Positions 1 through 55,503 of a stretch of DNA of 64,000 bases are shown in pieces. Position numbers and translations under genes: made by a program. Under the pieces are notes generated by a model that was not told where the DNA came from, searched no databases, and was given only the letters and a program-made list of their open reading frames with translations. Every line of letters begins with the position of its first letter. Within the stretch, counting starts at the first letter, position 1. The stretch is from an uncultured Methanosarcinaceae archaeon (lineage in GTDB: Archaea; Halobacteriota; Methanosarcinia; Methanosarcinales; Methanosarcinaceae): contig CAVSHT010000008.1 in the NCBI GenBank assembly GCA_963727895.1, positions 96,001 through 160,000 of the forward strand, in the 5' to 3' direction.

Positions 1-728
1 CTGCGTACACGTTCGATCCCATAATTAGCATATAATCGTCGTGAGTCATGTGGTTTCAGCCTCTGATTTTATGCATCTAATTTACCAGTATGATTATATA
101 AAATGCTTCTTAATCAGTTTTTGTTGTGAAATTGTACTTAAAAATAATGGTATTGTTATCTAAACATAGTTAACTCTTTATTTCTTTATTTCATCAATAG
201 AATAACCGAGTACTTTAGCATTTCAAGACTCTTCGTATAACACTTTGTCTTTCTTCTCAACCTTGCCAGAAAGTGCCTCAATATGCTGTTATATCCCTCA
301 ACAGTATACGTTTCTGCTTTGGATTGAGTATGAATCGTTTCAGGAAGAAACTCTGCATATGCCCTCCAGTGATCTGTCATCACTTCTCCAATGTCTTTTT
401 TCTTCACTTTTTCCCAGAGTAGTTTTCCAGTTTCCGTTCCTCTGCTGCCAAAAGAGCAGTTGATGAACTTTTTCCCAACTCTATCAACAGCAATCCAGAT
501 CCAGCAATATTTTGTTTGTTACCGATGTAAGTGTGCATTTCATCCATTTCAACAATAGATATTTCATTTTCACTTTTTAGAGCCTCCAACTCTTGACCAA
601 ATTTCTTGATCCATTTTTGGACAGAAACGTGACTTACCCCTAAAACGCACATGCTTTTCTTCGAATAACAAGCACAACTAATGAAAGTACTCTCCGTTCT
701 TTTTTTGGACTATTAAGCCCTCATTACC

Positions 729-862
729 TTGGGCAGTAAGGTTGTCTCGATTTTGGTTTTTCAAAACCGTCCTAAAACTAATCAGTGAATTGCCATCGAA
801 GGCTCAAGTGTGACTTTGATCACGGATGCTAAATTGGCCTTTTAGGCAATTCCACTGCCCAA
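729..862 (+). ncRNA. Putative IS110 bridge RNA core (target- and donor-binding loops); strand assumed from the transposase direction
   Basis: Closing stem TTGGGCAGT 729-737 / ACTGCCCAA 854-862. Hairpin GGTTTT-TC-AAAACC (755-768) flanked by CGATTTT and CCTAAAA, which match the target. Stem GAATTGCC/GGCAATTC encloses CAAGTGTG and ATGCTAAA, which match the element ends. Confidence 0.72.
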
Positions 863-881
863 ATAAATTTGGTGATCTAAT

Positions 882-2070
882 TTGATTGAAGTCATAAACA
901 AAGCTTGTGGTTTAGACATTCACAAACTCTTTTTCATTGCTACAATTTTCAGTAGATCTGGTGAAAAACAACAGCAACGTTTCAACAGAGATGATGAAGG
1001 AATTTTAGCCCTTAAAAATTGGGTAATATCAGAAAAATGTGATGTTGTTGCATGTGAATCAACCAGCTACTTTTGGGTTCCGATTCATGATTCATTGGTA
1101 AAGCATCTAACTGTGATAGTTGGAAATGCGCGAGATATGAAGGTATTTACCCATAAAAAACAGATAAGATTGACTCAGAAGTCATTGCACAACTTGCACT
1201 TAATAATATGATTCAGCCATCAAGAGTTTTTCCAAAGGATCATATAGATTTTAGATCATATGTTCGACTTCGGTTAACACTTGTACAAAAAAGAACAGAT
1301 TTAAAAAATAAAGCTCACTCAATTCTTGCATCTGAAATTCAATTCTTGCATCTGAAATGCTACACCTGAATAATGTGCTGACAGACGTTTTTGGCAAGAA
1401 TGGCAGAATGATCTTATTAGGAATCTCTTCAGGTAAGAGTGTTGATCAGATTATTGCAAGCCTCTCTCCAAATGTTCGGAAAAAAGCTGCTCAGATAAGA
1501 GAAATTCTTGATCGAGAAATTTCTCAAAGTGCTGCATTCAGACTTCAGATCTGTCTGAAACTCATAAAAAGTCTTGATGATGAACTCGAAGCTTTAGAAA
1601 CAGAAATTTTCAATTATGCTTCTCGAAATCATAAGCGAGAAATGGAGATTTTAATGTCAGTTCCAGGTATAGGGGAACTTGGTGCGGCAATTTTACTTGC
1701 TGAAATAGGCAACTTTAAGGATTTTTCTTCTGGAAATAAGCTTGCTTCTTGGCTTGGTCTAGTTCCTAATGTGTATCAATCTGCAGATAAATACTATAAC
1801 GGCAGAATCACAAAGAGGGGATCAAAAGTAGCAAAGTGGATTCTGACACAGATTGCTTAAGCAGCAGCAAGAAAGAAGAATAGCAGGTTAAAAGAGTTTT
1901 TTAACAGAAAAAAGAAGTCGATTGGACATGCAAAAGCAATTATTGCCTTAGCAAGGAAAATTGCAACGATACTATGGCATCTTATTACAAACGATGAGAT
2001 GGACGAAGATGAAACCGGATATCAAAAGAGAAATCCAAAAGAGAAAGATTATTGAGACTGAGATTTTTTA
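882..2070 (+). pseudogene. IS110 DEDD recombinase/transposase, disrupted
   Basis: Motifs GLDIHK, ACEST, KTDKIDS (intact in copy 2), VPGIG and YQSAD. Broken by a 1-nt deletion near 1155, a 20-bp tandem duplication at 1321-1358 and TAA at 1858-1860. Confidence 0.92.
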
Positions 2071-2416
2071 GGTTGATGAACTGATTAAAATAATTAGTGG
2101 AATATTTGCGATTATGGGGAAAAAGGATCAAGAGAGCACGTGAGGATAATCTCCTCATGTACTTTCATGCTAAATCATCCTATTGAGCGAAAGCCCAATC
2201 CTTCAAGATAGAGTTGTAAAGCCTGTCTTTTTACAGAAGCGGAAAAAGCAGTTGATTTTAGCTCTACTGTATAGTTATATCCACAATCATGGCATTTGTA
2301 GCGTTGACGCCCACCAACTATACCATTCTTTTTGTAATTAGAACTATTGCATCTGGGGCAGTTCATGAAGAAATATATGTTATAAGCATATATATCTATT
2401 TTTTAGTACCAATACC

Positions 2417-21615: not shown

Positions 21616-21898
21616 ACTTTTTCATGACCCGAAACTCGATTGATCCTTCCATATTAGCGATTCAGAGGAGCAATTTTGAGTATTAGGATCAGATTCACTA
21701 CTTAGTTATAATCATTTGAAAACTGAAAAAGTTTTTATTTTCTAAACTCAAAATATGGAAATATTATTTCAAAAATATTATATTTAGAAAATGAAATGAG
21801 TAAATCCACAGAAGCAAAAGTTCCGTATGTTGGATCAAATATCGACAGTTAAAGGTTTAATGCTATTATTTTTCAGCTCAAACGCATAAATATTATTT

Positions 21899-22640
21899 GG
21901 CATTGTTACTTAACTATATTTAATTATTTATTTCTGTATTTCATCAATAGAATAACCGAGTACTTTAGCATTTCAAGACTCTTCGTATAACACTTTGTCT
22001 CTTTCTTCTCAATCTTGCCAGAAAGTGCCTCAATATGCTGTTATATCCTTCAACGGTATACGTTTCTGCTTTTGATTGAGTATGGATCTTTTTTGGAATA
22101 AACTCTGCATATGCTCTCCAGTGATAGGTCATCACTTCTCCAATCTCTTTTTTCTTCACTTTTTCCCAGAGTAGTTTTCCAGTTTCCGTTCCTCTGCTAT
22201 CAAAAGAGCAGTTGATGAACTTTTTCCCAACTCTATCAATAGCAATCCAGATCCAGCAATATTTTTTTTGTTACCGATGTAAGTGTGCATCTCATCCATT
22301 TCAACAATAGATATCTCACTTTCACTTTTTAGGTCCTCTAACTCCTGACCAAATTTCTTTATCCATCTTTGGACAGAAACATGACTAACCCCTAAAACTC
22401 TTCCTATTGAACGAAAGCCCAATCCTTCAAGGTAAAGTTGTAAAGCCTGTTTTTTAACAGAGGCGGAAAAAGCAGTTGATTTTAGCTCTACTGTATAGTT
22501 ATATCCACAATCATGGCATTTGTAGCGTTGACGCCCGCCAACTATACCGTTCTTTTTGTGACTGGAACTATTGCATTTTGGGCAGTTCATGAAGAAATAT
22601 ATGTTATAAGCACATATATCTATTTTTGTTTACCAATGCC
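21899..22640 (-). mobile_element. Short IS1-family element, copy 2 (defective)
   Basis: TIRs GGCATTG / CAATGCC. insA at 22156-22590 with intact A8 slippery run. insB has MTYHW instead of MTDHW and a 3' frameshift. Confidence 0.93.
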
Positions 22641-30610: not shown

Positions 30611-31351
30611 GGAATTGATACTTAAACATAGTTATATACTATTAGAAAGTATATTTCTTCATGAACTGCCCCAAATGCAATAGTTCCAGTCACAAAAAGA
30701 ACGGTATAGTTGGCGGGCGTCAACGCTACAAATGCTCTGATTGTGGCTATAACTATACAGTAGAGCTAAAATCAACTGCTTTTTCCGCCTCTGTTAAAAA
30801 ACAGGCTTTACAACTTTACCTTGAAGGATTGGGCTTTCGTTCAATAGGAAGAGTTTTAGGGGTTAGTCATGTTTCTGTCCAAAGATGGATAAAGAAATTT
30901 GGTCAGGAGTTAGAGGACCTAAAAAGTGAAAGTGAGATATCTATTGTTGAAATGGATGAGATGCACACTTACATCGGTAACAAAAAAAATATTGCTGGAT
31001 CTGGATTGCTGTTGATAGAGTTGGGAAAAAGTTCATCAACTGCTCTTTTGGTAGTAGAGGAACGGAAACTGGAAAACTACTCTGGGAAAAATTGAAGAAA
31101 AAAGAGATTGGAGAAGTGATGACCTATCACTGGAGGGCATATGCAGAGTTTCTTCCAGAAACTATTCATACTCAATCAAAAGCAGAAACATTTACAGTTG
31201 AGGGATATAACAGCATATTGAGGCACTTTCTGGCAAGATTGAGAAGAAAGAGACAAAGTGTTATACGAAGATATTGAAATGCTAAAGTACTCGGTTATTC
31301 TATTGATGAAATATAGAAATAAATAACTAGATATATTTAATTACCAATGCC
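30611..31351 (+). mobile_element. Short IS1-family element, copy 3 (defective)
   Basis: TIRs GGAATTGATA / CAATGCC. insA at 30661-31095. insB has MTYHW and a frameshift. Confidence 0.93.
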
Positions 31352-31585
31352 GAATTTCAAGAAAAACAATAGGTTTTTCACAGAAAATTAAAGGACTATA
31401 CAATCAAATGAGACTTTACTGTACTTATTTTAACTTTTACAGATATCATAAGGGATTAAGAAGCGAAAAGGAAAAGGGAATTTTGGGAAAGAGAGCACCT
31501 GCAGAAGAATGTAGAATTACTAAAAAGAAATGGAAATTTACAGAGTTGTTAAACTACAGGAGTCTCAAAAACGTCAACTAATTAA
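31352..31585 (+). pseudogene. 3' remnant of a long IS1-family transposase truncated by IS1 copy 3
   Basis: ISRKTIGFSQK..QMRLYCTYFNF is homologous to the C-terminus of ORF 28525-29019. Confidence 0.8.
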
Positions 31586-44827: not shown

Positions 44828-45072
44828 GGTATTGATACTTAAACATAGTTATATGTTATTAGAAAGTATATTTCTTCATGAACTGCCCCAGATACAATAG
44901 TTCCAGTCACAAAAAGAACGGTATAGTTGGTGGGCGTTAACGGTACAAATGCTCTGATTGTGGCTATAACTATACAGTAGAGCTAAAATCAACTGCTTTT
45001 TCCGCTTCTGTAAAAAGACAGGCTTTACAACTCTATCTTGAAGGATTGGGCTTTCGCTCAATAGGACGATTT
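44828..45072 (+). mobile_element. Short IS1-family element, copy 5 (5' part only, interrupted by IS110)
   Basis: Left TIR GGTATTGATACTTAAACATAG and mutated insA up to GGACGATTT. Confidence 0.9.
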
Positions 45073-46567
45073 AGCATGAAAGTACATGAGGAGATTATCC
45101 TCACGTGCTCTCTTGATCCTTTTTCCCCATAATCGCAAATATTCCACTAATTATTTTAATCCGTTCATCAACCTAAAAAATCTCAGTTTCAATAATCTTT
45201 CTCTTTTGGATTTCTCCCTTTTGATATCCGGTTTCATCTTCGTCCATCTCATCGTTTGTAATAAGATGCCATAGTATCGTTGCAATTTTCCTTGCTAAGG
45301 CAATAATTGTTTTTGCATGTCCAATCGACTTCTTTTTTCTGTTAAAAAACTCTTTTAACCTGCTATTCTTCTTTCTTGCTGCTGCTTGAGCAATCTGTGT
45401 CAGAATCCACCTTGCTACTTTTGATCCCCTCTTTGTGATTCTGCCGTTATAGTATTTATCTGCAGATTGATACACATTAGGAACTAGACCAAGCCAAGAA
45501 GCAAGCTTATTTCCAGAAGAAAAATCCTTAAAGTTGCCTATTTCAGCAAGTAAAATTGCCGCACCAAGTTCCCCTATACTTGGAACTGACATTAAAATCT
45601 CCATTTCTCGCTTATGATTTCGAGAAGCATAATTAAAAATTTCTTTTTCTAAAGCTTCGAGTTCATCATCAAGACTTTTTATGAGTTTCAGACAGATCTG
45701 AAGTCTGAATGCAGCACTTTGAGAAATTTCTCGATCAAGAATTTCTCTTATCTGAGCAGCTTTTTTCCGAACATTTGGAGAGAGGCTTGCAATAATCTGA
45801 CCAACACTCTTACCTAAAGAGATTCCTAATAAGATCATTCTGCCATTCTTGCCAAAAACGTCTGTCGGCACATTATTCAGGTGTAGCATTTCAGATGCAA
45901 GAATTGAATTTCAGATGCAAGAATTGAGTGAGCTTTATTTTTTAAATCTGTTCTTTTTTGTACAAGTGTTAACCGAAGTCGAACATATGATCTAAAATCT
46001 ATATGATCCTTTGGGAAAACTCTTGATGGCTGAATCATATTATTAAGTGCAAGTTGTGCAATGACTTCTGAGTCAATCTTATCTGTTTTTTTATGGGTAA
46101 ATACCTTCATATCTCGCGCATTTCCAACTATCACAGTTAGATGCTTTATCAATGAATCATGAATCGGAACCCAAAAGTAGCTGGTTGATTCACATGCAAC
46201 AACATCACATTTTTCTGATATTACCCAATTTTTAAGGGCTAAAATTCCTTCATCATCTCTGTTGAAACGTTGCTGTTGTTTTTCACCAGATCTACTGAAA
46301 ATTGTAGCAATGAAAAAGAGTTTGTGAATGTCTAAACCACAAGCTTTGTTTATGACTTCAATCAAATTAGATCACCAAATTTATTTGGGCAGTGGAATTG
46401 CCTAAAAGGCCAATTTAGCATCCGTGATCAAAGTCACACTTGAGCCTTCGATGGCAATTCACTGATTAGTTTTAGGACGGTTTTGAAAAACCAAAATCGA
46501 GACAACCTTACTGCCCAAGGTAATGAGGACTTAATAGTCAAAAAAAAGAACGGAGAGTACTTTCATT
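45073..46567 (-). mobile_element. IS110-family element, copy 2, left end truncated by IS6
   Basis: Reverse complement of about 680-2171 with the same 20-bp frameshifting duplication. ORFs 45877-46365 and 45173-45889. Confidence 0.93.
46385..46518 (-). ncRNA. Putative IS110 bridge RNA core, copy 2
   Basis: Reverse complement of 729-862 with the same guide segments. Confidence 0.7.
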
Positions 46568-47424
46568 GGTTCCGTTGCAAAAAATATCTGCTAAGGATAT
46601 AATTAAAATAAAAATGAAATCAAAGATAGTGATATGCTATCTAATTCCTTTAAATGGAAGCACTTTGTAGGTGAAATTATTTTATTGAATGTTAGATGGT
46701 ACTTAAAATACCCACTTAGTTATAGAAATTTAAAGGAAATGATGGCAGAAAGAGGGATAATAGTCAACCATACAACCATTATGAGATGGGTACATCAATA
46801 TTCACCTGAAATCGAAAAGAAGGTCAGAAGGCATTTAAGACCAACAAACGACTCTTGGAGAGTTGATGAAACTTATATCAGAGTTAAAGGTGAATGGAAA
46901 TATTTTTACCGAGCAGTTGACTCAAATGGAGATACAATTGATTTCATGTTAAGTGCAAAACGAAATAAAAAAGCAGCGAACAGATTCTTCAAAAAAGCTT
47001 TGAACTCTAATCATAATCAAATTCCAAGAGTAATCACAGTTGACAAAAATCCAGCTTATCCACCTGCTATAGATAAACTGAAAAATGATAAAATACTACC
47101 TATAAACGTAGGCATTCGACAAATCAAATATTTGAATAACATTATAGAACAGGATCATAGATCCATTAAACGAATAGTTAATCCAATGTTAGGATTTCAG
47201 TCTTTTCATACAGCCATTAAAACTTTAAAAGGAATTGAAACTATGAATATGATTAAAAAAGGACAAATCAAGAACTTAAATTACTCTGGCTTTAATGAAG
47301 CTAAATATATTAATCAATTATTTGGAATAGTTCTATAATATTGACATATCTTTTTGAATATTTTAACTTTTATTCATTATTCATAGATTTACAGGCTTAT
47401 TCTAAGATTTTTTGCAACGGAACC
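46568..47424 (+). mobile_element. IS6-family element
   Basis: Perfect TIR GGTTCCGTTGCAAAAAAT / ATTTTTTGCAACGGAACC; no target duplication. Confidence 0.95.
46634..47338 (+). CDS. IS6-family transposase, apparently intact
   Basis: FKWKHF, LSYRNLKEMMAERG, WRVDETY, ITVDK and YLNNIIEQDHR. Confidence 0.95.
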   Translation: MLSNSFKWKHFVGEIILLNVRWYLKYPLSYRNLKEMMAERGIIVNHTTIMRWVHQYSPEIEKKVRRHLRPTNDSWRVDETYIRVKGEWKYFYRAVDSNGDTIDFMLSAKRNKKAANRFFKKALNSNHNQIPRVITVDKNPAYPPAIDKLKNDKILPINVGIRQIKYLNNIIEQDHRSIKRIVNPMLGFQSFHTAIKTLKGIETMNMIKKGQIKNLNYSGFNEAKYINQLFGIVL

Positions 47425-52376: not shown

Positions 52377-53116
52377 GGTATTGGTAATCAAAAATAGATA
52401 TGTATACTTATAACATATATTTCTTCATGAACTGCCCAAAATGCGATAGTTCCAGTCACAAAAAGAACGGTATAGTTGGTGGGCGTCAACGCTACAAATG
52501 CCACGATTGTGGCTATAACTATACAGTAGAGCTAAAATCAACTGCTTTTTCCGCTTCTGTAAAAAGACAGGCTTTACAACTCTATCTTGAAGGATTGGGC
52601 TTTTGCTTAATAGGAAGAGTTTTAGGGGTGAGTCATGTTTCTGTCCAAAAACGGATCAAGAAATTTGGTCAAGAGTGAGAGAATCTAAAAAGTGAAAGTG
52701 AGATATCTATTGTTGAAATGGATGAGATGCACACTTACATCGGTAACAAAAAAAATATTGTTGGATCTGGATTGCTGTTGATAGAGTTGGGAAAAAGTTC
52801 ATCAACTGCTCTTTTGGCAGCAGAGGAACGGAAACTGGACAACTACTCTGGGAAAAATTGAAGAAAAAATAGATTGGAGAAGTGATGACCGATCACTGGA
52901 GGGCATATGCAGAGTTTCTTCCAGAAAAGAGTCATACTCAATCAAAAGCAGAAACATTTACAGTTGAGGAATATAACAGCATATTGAGGCACTTTCTAGT
53001 AAGGTTGAGAAGAAAGACAGAGTGTTATGCGAAGAGTCTTGAAATGCTAAAGTACTCGGTGATTCTATTGATGAAATACAGAAATAAAGAAATAGATATA
53101 TTTAGTTAACAATACC
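52377..53116 (+). mobile_element. Short IS1-family element, copy 6 (defective)
   Basis: TIRs GGTATTGGTAA / TTAACAATACC; in-frame TGA and TAG. Confidence 0.93.
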
Positions 53117-53601
53117 AAATAAAGATTTATCTATCCCTTCGCTTTGCGAATATATTCTCAATCCTAATCTTCTGTGTTATCCGTTTTCACTCAGATCAAT
53201 TAATTTTACAACATAGAACGAATGATTTTAGTGTAATTACTTCTTATATAGATACCTTTATACATTTTACTGTATCTTTCGAATTCAATTTCTTGTTTAT
53301 GACATTCAGTTTCTTGTTATAAATCTATAACTGCCAATGCAGCACCTAAAAAAATCTAAGAGAGGGCTCTAGTGCAAAAGAGTTTAAAAAGAAAAGATAA
53401 AATACCGAGCCGAAGGACTTAAAACTGAAGGGAGAGCAAAAAGAGCTAGATTTGAGAATAAATTTAAACGAGATTTAAACGAGATTTGAAAGAGCTTAAG
53501 GGAAATTAAAGATAATTTATGAAAAGTTAAGGAAATTTAAAGATAACTTAAGGAAATTTAAAGAAAATTAAAGTGCTTCCTGCTTAGATTCGGGTGAAAA
53601 T

Positions 53602-55503
53602 ATGGAAAAATACGATTATAGTGAACTTGGGCTGAAAGCCGGGCTTGAAATTCACCAGCAGCTGGATTCAAAGGAAAAATTGTTCTGCCGGTGTCCTACC
53701 CTGATAAGGGATGTCAAGGATTCGGACTTTGAGTTTTTCAGGTATCTAAGGGCTACTGAAAGTGAGATGGGAGAAAAGGACAGAGCTGCTGTAGAGCAGA
53801 CAAAGATCAGGAGGAAGTACATCTATAAGGCTTATGACACCACCTGCCTTGTAGAAAATGATGAGGAGCCTCCAAGAGAACTCAATAAAGAAGCTCTGGA
53901 CATCTCTCTTGTAATTGCAAAACTTTTTAACATGAATCCAGTTGACCAGATGCACGTCATGAGGAAAATTGTCGTGGATGGGTCAAACACTAGCGGATTT
54001 CAGAGAACTGCTTTTCTTGCAAGCAATGGGTGTATTGAAACCTCAGACGGTCGCTGCGGGATTGACAGTCTCTGCGTAGAAGAAGAAGCTGCCCAGAAAG
54101 TAGAGGAAATCGGGGACTCCATAATTTATTCCCTTGACCGATTAGGAATCCCACTTGTAGAGATTGCAACTGCACCGGATATCAAGTCTCCTAGCCAGGC
54201 AAAAGAGGTTGCCGAGCAGATAGGAATGGTCCTCAGGTCCACAGGAAAAGTAAAGAGAGGACTTGGCACAATCAGGCAGGACGTTAATATCTCAATTGCC
54301 GAAGGAGCAAGAGTAGAAATAAAAGGCGTTCAGGCTCTTGACCTCATAGAAGACATTGTCCGCAGGGAAGTTGAAAGGCAGTTGAATCTTCTTTTCATCA
54401 GGCAGGAACTCATGGAAAGAAAAGCTTTCGTCTGTGAAGAAATCTATGATGTAACAGGGCTTTTCGTAGATACAAAATCGAAAGTTCTACAAAAAGGCAT
54501 AAAAAAAGGTGCAATCCTAGCTGCTCTTCTCAGGAAATTCGACGGGCTTGTAGGCAAAGAAGTCCAGCCCGGAAGAAGGCTAGGAACAGAATTTTCTGAC
54601 AGGGCAAAAACGGCAGGTGTTGGAGGGATTTTCCACACAGATGAACTCCCCAATTATGGAATTACCGAAAAGGAAGTTAAGGCTTTAAGGGATGCAATAG
54701 GCGCACACCCCGGAGATGCCGTAATAATGGTTGCTGATGATCCCGAAAAATCAAGGCTTGCAATTGAAGCGGTTATTGAAAGGGCAAAGGAAGCCATAAT
54801 AGGAATTCCTGAAGAAACTCGAAGAGCTCTGCCCGATGGAAACACTGCTTATATGCGTCCCCTTCCGGGTGCAGCAAGGATGTATCCTGAAACCGATGTG
54901 CCGCAGATCGAAATTTCACAGGATTACTTTGATTCTATTGAGGTTCCAGAACTTCTTACTGAACGGGCTAAGCGTTTTGTTTCCGAAAATGGTTTAAATG
55001 AAGAGCTTGCCGGAAAAATAGCTTATTCAAAGTATCTTCCTCTCTTTGAAAGCTTGATTGAGACTTACGGAAAAGATGAAACTGTAAACTCAACCCTTAT
55101 TGCCAGAACTCTTGTCGGAATCGTTCCAGAAGTCCGTAGAAATGGAGTTGATACCGAAAACCTTACAGATGAACATTTCATAGGTCTTTTTGTAGCTATT
55201 TCAAACCAGGAAATCGCAAAAGAAGCTATTCATGACCTTTTGACAGCTCTTGCAAAAGAGCCTGAACTAAGCGTGTCAGAAGCAATTTCAAAGCTTGGGC
55301 TGAGTGCTTTTGACCCCGAAGAGGTAGAAAAATTCATCAAGAAAACAGTAAAGGAAAGGGAAGACTTTATTAAGGAAAAAGGTCCTGCAGCTCTTGGTCC
55401 TCTCATGGGCATTGTCATGAAGGAATACAGGGGCACAGTTGATGGAAAAATCCTTAGTCAGATGCTAAAAAAGGAACTGGATAGTTTCATCAGCCAAGGG
55501 TAA
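53602..55503 (+). CDS. gatE: Glutamyl-tRNA(Gln) amidotransferase subunit E
   Basis: [32 protein letters not shown] and [11 protein letters not shown]. Confidence 0.98.

Follow-up and report, generated by a model that had tools for sequence, protein, structure and literature searches.

Bridge recombinases of the IS110 family, exemplified by IS621 (Durrant et al. 2024, PMC11208160; Hiraizumi et al. 2024, PMC11208158), are the closest described counterparts of an insertion sequence that we report here from an uncultured Methanosarcinaceae archaeon. The stretch analysed (the window) comprises 64,000 nucleotides, positions 96001-160000 of contig 8 in a genome of 3.67 Mb, 19 contigs and about 36% G+C, and contains two copies of an IS110-family element, each joined to a part of an IS1-family element that it interrupts. 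In IS621, the RNA layout is described as running from a left guide of 9 bases and a single linker base, through a stem-loop and a linker that contains G, to the right guide and two handshake bases. Double mismatches are described there as poorly tolerated (PMC11208158, PMC11208160), and cognate pairing of the handshake bases as blocking strand exchange (PMC11208158). The seekRNA paper (PMC11187229) describes a guide order that is reversed between IS1111 and IS110 types, and a preprint (10.64898/2026.08.31.748434) describes recombination of IS621 at half-matching sites, composed of the core and one arm, in vitro and in E. coli.

As far as these accounts go, the archaeal element resembles IS621 in its two-domain recombinase with a long non-coding leader upstream, and in a predicted leader architecture of two loops, with the 5' segment in target or donor sense and the 3' segment complementary to the other side. 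The 5' guide of 9 bases is followed by one linker base and a hairpin, as in IS621; donor and target would share a short core, with T as its second base in the IS1 sense; and insertion into a repeated sequence is conservative and orientation-specific. Unlike IS621, the element resides in an archaeon of the Methanosarcina group and targets the coding sequence of another insertion sequence, not a REP element. Its right-target guide is long (7 bases) and dominant, and sites outside IS1 keep only the right half. The side bound by the 5' guide joins the transposase-distal end, such that the polarity looks inverted, and a long-range stem closes both loops of the leader, which has no Rfam match.

A second point of comparison is the pair IS4321/IS5075, which reportedly targets the terminal repeats of Tn21-family transposons. 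This pair belongs to the same superfamily and likewise has its natural target within a different mobile element, in whose copies it accumulates. The target, however, is the terminal repeat of a Tn3-family transposon in bacteria, in contrast to IS1 transposase codons in an archaeon, and the portion of the literature on IS4321/IS5075 available to us contained no allele-dependent target occupancy. A literature search, with preprint supplements outside its scope, returned no paper in which a target escapes a bridge RNA or in which an IS110 element is nested in IS1.

We consider it probable that the element carries an IS1-directed, bridge-RNA-like leader and that the occupancy of IS1 copies has been shaped jointly by guide match and history. 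The mechanism would be that of known IS110 bridge recombinases, and targeting of a mobile element by this superfamily was already known. New are an archaeal member with a guide that apparently addresses the coding sequence of insA in an IS1 of high copy number, a guide polarity that appears inverted, and a natural allele series with unequal occupancy.

A single insertion site in IS1

The window contains two occupied and four empty IS1 copies. IS1 alleles are named here by the four bases at IS1 positions 240-243.

149..646, minus strand: IS1 right part (reference about 243-741) of occupied copy 1, from BLAST to the IS1 reference and direct reading; its end at 637-646 reads ...CCCCTAAAAC
647..2174, plus strand: IS110-family element copy 1, with its leader at 647 to about 880 and broken transposase frames (882-1211, 1357-1860)
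731..866, plus strand: bridge-RNA-like leader of copy 1, with a closing stem, predicted from the consensus fold of 20 relatives, guide-flank covariation and variants among copies
745-753, 755-768 and 771-777, plus strand: 5' guide segment, hairpin and 3' guide segment of the predicted target loop
826-833, plus strand: predicted 3' guide of the donor loop of copy 1
2175..2416, minus strand: IS1 left part of copy 1; site allele TGAT, giving an in-frame stop in insA
21895..22640, minus strand: empty IS1 copy, AGAG (direct reading, BLAST)
30611..31355, plus strand: empty IS1 copy used as reference, AGAG; its orfB frame matches DDE_Tnp_IS1 and the insA helix-turn-helix spans the target codons
42480..43219, plus strand: empty IS1 copy, AGAG (direct reading, BLAST)
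44828..45072, plus strand: IS1 left part of occupied copy 2; site allele CGAT, then three T
45073..46567, minus strand: IS110-family element copy 2, with split frames 45173-45889 (Transposase_20) and 45877-46365 (DEDD_Tnp_IS110)
46568..47424, plus strand: IS6-family element (DDE_Tnp_IS240), which truncates IS110 copy 2; the expected IS1 right part is absent
52377..53120, plus strand: empty IS1 copy, AGAG (direct reading, BLAST)

Both IS110 copies interrupt IS1 at the same point, as an initial annotation of the window had stated; direct reading places the junctions at 45072/45073 and 2174/2175. In the IS1 sense, the junction of copy 2 reads ATAGGACGATTT at 45061-45072 and AGCATG at 45073-45078. 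Copy 1 lies in the opposite orientation, and the reverse complement of 2163-2183 gives ATAGGATGATTT followed by AGCATG. The annotated boundary is a real junction, in one of several equivalent placements within the T-run, and the boundary of copy 1 is ambiguous inside an A/T run. All four empty copies carry ATAGGAAGAGTTTTAGGGG at the site and, being AGAG, mismatch the guide as annotated. Direct reading also bears out the codon assignments made there, C240A being synonymous (Arg) and T243G replacing Phe by Val; the T in the allele of copy 1 creates a TGA stop.

The annotation had further noted different left ends in the two IS1 hosts. We count 20 mismatches in 229 compared left-half columns, and from position 153 to the junction the sole difference is at 240 (C/T). 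The two IS110 copies differ at 16 of 1492 aligned bases, the first ~15-35 leader bases of copy 2 being removed. They stand at separate loci, and both junctions are one T short. The proposal of two independent sequence-specific insertions stands with respect to guide direction, through the covariation described below, and to the occurrence of more than one event in the genome; for the window pair itself, both independent insertion and descent from a single composite fit the data.

The assignment to the IS110 family is based on domain content and insertion behaviour. Frames of copy 2 match the Pfam domains DEDD_Tnp_IS110 (PF01548, 72 bits) and Transposase_20 (PF02371, 90.7 bits), and both domains lie in one uninterrupted frame of 392 residues in copy P0001 on contig 4. 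A 20-base internal duplication common to 19 of the 23 IS110 copies of the genome splits the frame into a DEDD-domain and a Tnp-domain half (window 1290-1340 and 45880-45930). As copies bearing the duplication reached many sites, some of them outside IS1, they were presumably mobilised in trans or encode a working split protein. Further family traits are the long non-coding left end with predicted programmable loops and site- and orientation-specific insertion without target duplication beyond the shared core. Relatives with 66-89% protein identity occur almost only in records titled Methanosarcina or Methanosarcinaceae, and none of those examined is inserted in IS1.

The host element conforms to the IS1 family with about 745 bases, terminal repeats, an insA-like frame with a helix-turn-helix and a putative zinc ribbon, an A-run and an orfB of the DDE_Tnp_IS1 type. 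The second frame (orfB) matches DDE_Tnp_IS1 (PF03400) at 43.9 bits against a cut-off of 24.1. The insA-like first frame passes for HTH_23 (30.7 bits), with the target codons inside the match, and scores 16.8 bits for Zn_ribbon_InsA, under the cut-off of 26.1. The A-run between the two frames is seen in the sequence as a putative frameshift site. Unlike the family at large, this IS1 reaches a very high copy number, with 198 full-length copies plus fragments in 3.67 Mb, and its population is close to linkage equilibrium.

A BLAST search of the whole genome with IS1 and IS110 queries (IS1 reference copy 30611-31355) yielded 301 IS1 and 27 IS110 matches. Among the IS1 matches, 198 are full-length empty copies, 16 are left parts that stop at the site and 11 are right parts that begin at it; the family numbers approximately 250 copies. 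The IS110 matches collapse to 23 copies and two distant fragments. At least one junction lies at the single IS1 site in 20 of the 23 copies, all in one orientation with the transposase antisense to insA. The transposase-distal end lies in IS1 in 16 of 23 copies and the leader end in 15 of 23, with both ends there in 11. So consistent a use of one site far exceeds chance, and the pattern is much stronger across the genome than the window could show.

In eight further cases IS1 adjoins a single end of the IS110 copy, the leader end in four and the distal end in the other four (contigs 3, 4, 5, 9 and 11). Their hybrid flanks suggest later recombination between IS110 copies, the pattern expected of inversions or translocations. 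Three copies lie wholly outside IS1; there, a TTAG half-site is kept and the leader-side flank ends with a CTAAAAC motif. The half-match recombination described for IS621 (10.64898/2026.08.31.748434) fits these three copies and possibly the AGAG hosts, in which the right arm and core are kept, although in our case it is read from flank sequences. Since the junctions fall into three types with different IS1 alleles (CGAT, AGAT and AGAG) and three copies lie outside IS1, more than one insertion event has taken place. The closest IS110 pair (contig 11, 88847-90383 and 111677-113214), with 6 differences in 1509 bases, is located outside IS1 in both members, and the most recent moves may therefore have gone to half-matching sites other than IS1.

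The count of T residues across the junctions is conservative if a three-T donor is assumed. In CGAT and AGAT hosts, a target of 5 and a donor of 3 give 4 + 4 (7 copies); in AGAG hosts, a target of 4 and a donor of 3 give 3 + 4 (3 copies). Homopolymer length at the distal junction is unstable across the family. In relatives with a T-rich 5' guide (L029, L036, L037, L048-L062), the distal junction is usually one A/T under the guide prediction. Examples are L036/L037 compared with L029, and 11 of 13 distal junctions in one Methanosarcina record; at one orthologous site, the junction differs between genomes (four versus three).

The leader as a candidate bridge RNA

Alignment of the leaders from this genome and 19 relatives reveals a closing stem, a target loop and a donor loop. 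The target loop consists of an outer stem, 9-10 variable bases, a hairpin, two linker bases and 7 variable bases, and these two segments, located between invariant stems, are the only variable stretches in the 20 aligned leaders. The structure is taken from the alignment, since the fold of a single leader was not better than that of shuffled sequences (z -1.16).

The variable segments follow the flanks of the elements that carry them. In a set of 27 elements, identity between the 3' segment and the leader-side flank averages 6.15 of 7 positions, against a mean of 4.73 and a maximum of 5.33 in 2000 shuffles. For the 5' segment, the reverse complement agrees with the other junction at an average of 6.52 of 9 positions, whereas the shuffles average 5.52 and reach 6.15 at best. 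Both observed values are higher than in any of the 2000 shuffles. We regard guide-directed targeting of IS1 by the IS110 element as very probable.

The guide register is fixed by the relatives L065 and L077, in which the ninth base of the 5' segment is not T. It assigns the core to bases 7-8 of the 5' segment, with the distal end giving one T. The predicted target in the IS1 sense is then CGAT, a TT core and TTAGG, which corresponds to the five-T CGAT allele. As the core falls within the T-run, its identity as TT is deduced from L065 and L077, and its exact position is tentative. A register with a two-base linker, for which the four-T allele would be the ideal target, was rejected on the same two relatives in favour of the one-base linker. 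In 16 of 16 cases, the IS1 left part, which the 5' guide segment matches, is joined to the transposase-distal end.

Variants of the guide occur among the IS110 copies. Five copies carry C to T changes in both segments, with wobble pairing kept, and the two oldest copies contain other changes; none of the variants in this genome shifts towards AGAG. In our own reading of the sequences, the 3' guide together with the next two leader bases pairs 9 of 9 with the AGAG allele. G243 would drop the left-guide pair adjoining the core and, by analogy with IS621, enable a blocking pairing of the handshake bases, which speaks in favour of a real mismatch effect.

We postulate that an element with an IS110-family recombinase (DEDD/RuvC-like plus Tnp domain) encodes a bridge-RNA-like leader upstream of its transposase, and that the target loop of this leader would be programmed for an 11-base stretch of insA helix-turn-helix codons. 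Insertion would proceed by conservative, orientation-specific recombination that splits IS1. The ancestral allele CGAT would match the guide, and AGAG, now the commonest allele in the genome, would mismatch two of the four paired left-target bases. Occupancy would be the joint product of guide matching and of history, namely of the period of IS110 activity and of the IS1 variants present in it. The proposal builds on observations of site, orientation, domain content, guide-flank covariation, allele counts and allele polarity.

Target alleles, occupancy and history

The alleles of empty IS1 copies and of the left parts adjoining IS110 are distributed as follows; the same alleles are seen among all 222 IS1 matches that span the site.

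AGAG: 125 of 198 empty copies, 3 of 16 occupied left parts
CGAT: 40 of 198 empty, 10 of 16 occupied (CGAT-type, including 3 TGAT)
AGAT: 11 of 198 empty, 3 of 16 occupied
CGGT: 8 of 198 empty, 0 of 16 occupied
CGAG: 5 of 198 empty, 0 of 16 occupied
Other alleles: 9 of 198 empty, 0 of 16 occupied

Copies with T243 are occupied in 13 of 74 cases, versus 3 of 135 with G243 (odds ratio 9.4, p 1.3e-4). The odds ratio is 11 when copies with near-identical neighbours are dropped, and 11.5 within the C230 background (10/30 versus 3/72, p 2e-4). On the ancestral flank background (C230/A254/A274), 10 of 15 CGAT-type copies are occupied versus 3 of 39 AGAG copies, and the two guide-paired positions are all that separates the most frequent empty haplotype from the occupied one. 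AGAG is thus occupied about tenfold less often, yet it is not immune.

The polarity of the alleles was read from the genus. All 11 IS1 sites from 8 related genomes are C240/T243 (CGAT-type), and a 19-mer carrying AGAG matches our genome 125 times but is absent from 58 further genomes of the genus; AGAG is therefore derived. Of the 59 genomes, 12 contain the corresponding CGAT 19-mer. The IS1-directed 3' guide, taken together with its stem context, gives 21 matches here and none in the other 58. The junction-pattern scan of the genus detects the AGAG junction type only, and the guide scan covers the IS1-directed guide across the genus. As far as sampled, AGAG appears confined to the genome with the IS1-directed guide.

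These counts bear on the remaining claims of the initial annotation. Its statement that all empty copies carry guide mismatches does not extend to the genome, in which 40 of 198 full-length empty copies are guide-matching CGAT. The suggested tabulation of IS1 alleles against occupancy did reveal the contrast between T243 and G243, but no absolute rule. AGAG as a target-escape allele is borne out to the extent that it is a derived state and departs from the guide in two of the bases that pair with it. In its strict form, escape fails because AGAG can be occupied, adjoining IS110 in 3 of 16 occupied left halves, and because many CGAT copies are empty, the 40 mentioned above existing beside an IS110 family that retains one uninterrupted transposase frame.

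We place the number of independent insertions into IS1 at 4 to 16, the lower figure counting each junction class once. The IS1 population contains 101 common biallelic columns in 714, about 0.8 private changes per copy and a median nearest neighbour at 24 mismatches; r2 is 0.12 below 50 bases and 0.01 beyond, close to linkage equilibrium. As the copies are recombinant mosaics, host divergence can neither date nor separate insertions. The host phylogeny that had been suggested to tell independent insertion from duplication was consequently uninformative. A comparison of the IS110 tree with junction class gave no clean association, the IS110 copies being mosaic too, and the linkage between positions 240 and 243 (r2 0.59), considered as an exceptional feature, proved ordinary for sites 3 bases apart. 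The near-equilibrium state itself may reflect either intense short-tract exchange between copies or an effect of assembly and polishing in repeats.

The under-occupation of AGAG is real as a count and is confounded by history, background and age. The mismatches themselves may lower the rate of insertion, which would make AGAG a plausible partial-resistance allele, and we lean slightly towards such a causal effect on occupancy.

Several observations weigh against a guide-matching explanation of the locus. On the side of the leader, a Rfam scan of copy 1 gave no match at E up to 1. The 5' guide of the donor loop is only partly complementary and is placed in a hairpin by the consensus fold, and expression of the leader and its role in guiding recombination are predicted from sequence. 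With respect to the direction of the transposase, the two guide segments appear to follow an order opposite to that in IS621, although the leader precedes the gene as it does in the IS110 group; we treat this as a variant and not as exclusion from the family. On the side of the target, IS110 is present in three AGAG hosts, each time as a different variant, 40 copies with CGAT have no insertion, and neither has any of the 28 C240/T243 copies with T230. Occupied copies are enriched for ancestral alleles at 230, 254 and 274, outside plausible guide contact, as strongly as at 243; the ancestral fraction rises from 0.50 to 0.88 at 230, from 0.36 to 0.82 at 254, from 0.52 to 0.91 at 274 and from 0.31 to 0.81 at 243. 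If each junction class is counted as one event (n=4), no occupancy test is significant. Finally, six occupied copies, including both in the window, show CGA or TGA followed by only three T, one T under the canonical junction. A four-T target, a two-T donor and later slippage are all possible origins. We rejected a heritable short-end sub-lineage, as nearby IS110 markers give it no support and the same shortening recurs in relatives.

The enrichment at flanking positions is what would be expected if history alone accounts for the pattern, an explanation that we consider rather unlikely. IS110 would have been indifferent to the allele and active while IS1 was mostly ancestral (C230, CGAT, A254, A274), the occupied copies being shielded fossils, and AGAG and a young CGAT burst would have spread later. 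The enrichment spans positions 179-301 and fades outward (mean over 72 sites 0.58 versus 0.54), and the C230/A254/A274 background occurs in 8 of 9 complete composites versus 47 of 198 empty copies. The activity of IS110 seems to predate the latest expansion of IS1: a recent burst makes up half of the main CGAT subgroup, with 13 of 26 copies on the T230/G254/G274 background having a neighbour within 2 mismatches, and the genome contains 33 identical IS1 pairs, versus 6 differences in 1509 bases for the closest IS110 pair. The frame-splitting duplication in 19 of 23 IS110 copies points in the same direction. The allele contrast, however, persists inside the C230 background. On the ancestral C230 background, the distance to the nearest neighbour is similar for AGAG and CGAT copies (median 29.5 versus 33 mismatches), and AGAG was already present while IS110 was active, as the AGAG hosts harbour three different IS110 variants, including the most divergent copy.

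A more far-reaching explanation holds that AGAG became the majority allele because IS1 lineages bearing it escaped inactivation by IS110, in an arms race of transposon versus transposon. The ancestral state of CGAT in all related sites, the restriction of both the AGAG 19-mer and the IS1-directed guide to this genome, and the occupancy contrast on the ancestral background, where the commonest empty haplotype departs from the occupied one only at guide-paired bases, would all agree with such selection. The co-occurrence of guide and AGAG, however, comes from one genome, and the guide shows no counter-change towards AGAG. The IS1 lineage that is currently expanding carries the guide-matching CGAT and is untouched by IS110, the linkage between 240 and 243 is ordinary, and AGAG is not immune; moreover, the spread of a single active AGAG master copy as a founder would produce the same picture. 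Selected escape seems unlikely to us. It is equally doubtful that AGAG is a naturally selected partial-resistance allele, whose two guide-paired substitutions, one adding handshake pairing, spared its lineage and let it take over the genome.

The occupied copies might also derive from one or few insertions followed by copying, with an IS1::IS110 composite duplicated by IS1 transposase in trans, or with IS110 and short flanks moved by homologous recombination. The TGAT form, present in three occupied copies and in no empty copy, suggests that some composites or junctions were copied. The one-T-short junction is common to six copies, three of the four canonical CGAT junctions hold one IS110 sub-lineage, the local flank haplotype common to occupied copies decays with distance, and the eight copies with IS1 on one side show that IS110 copies recombine. 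As a general account, copying is improbable: at least three junction types carry different IS1 alleles, and the host halves are as divergent as random IS1 pairs, with 6-29 mismatches in 229 on the left (background 8.5%) and 9-37 in ~480 on the right. Within junction classes, the 20-base duplication and guide variants set IS110 bodies apart from one another, which counts against wholesale copying. Furthermore, three copies lie fully outside IS1 at guide-like half-sites, and relatives elsewhere follow the same guide-flank logic at other targets.

The genome offers a natural experiment, with about 200 near-identical targets, two differing guide-paired bases and occupancy on record. It also presents a candidate bridge-RNA element in an archaeon that uses the gene of another transposon as a safe harbour. 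Because bridge recombinases are in development as programmable genome editors, natural mismatch data are of direct interest. If the mismatch effect is causal, the allele series provides a natural measure of left-target and handshake-base stringency and an example of conflict between mobile elements, and the evolution of multicopy targets away from RNA-guided invaders becomes testable. Selected escape, if true, would provide the first case in nature of a target site evading an RNA-guided transposon, with transposons on both sides. If history alone is responsible, the locus is an ordinary though clean example of IS110 site specificity.

IS6-family sequences adjoining IS110 copies

Two IS110 copies adjoin sequences of the IS6 family. 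On contig 4, a divergent leader lies at ~54039-54090 beside the IS110 copy at 52523-54055, with a 3' guide unlike the IS1-directed one. This guide matches its own left flank at 8 of 8 positions, and the flank is a 53-base end fragment of an IS6-family element; the other end of the same IS110 copy is in IS1. The combination hints at a second retargeting, to another insertion sequence, followed by recombination between IS110 copies. In the window, the IS6-family element (DDE_Tnp_IS240) at 46568-47424, represented genome-wide by 52 full-length copies and about 100 fragments, has deleted the start of IS110 copy 2 together with the adjoining IS1 half.

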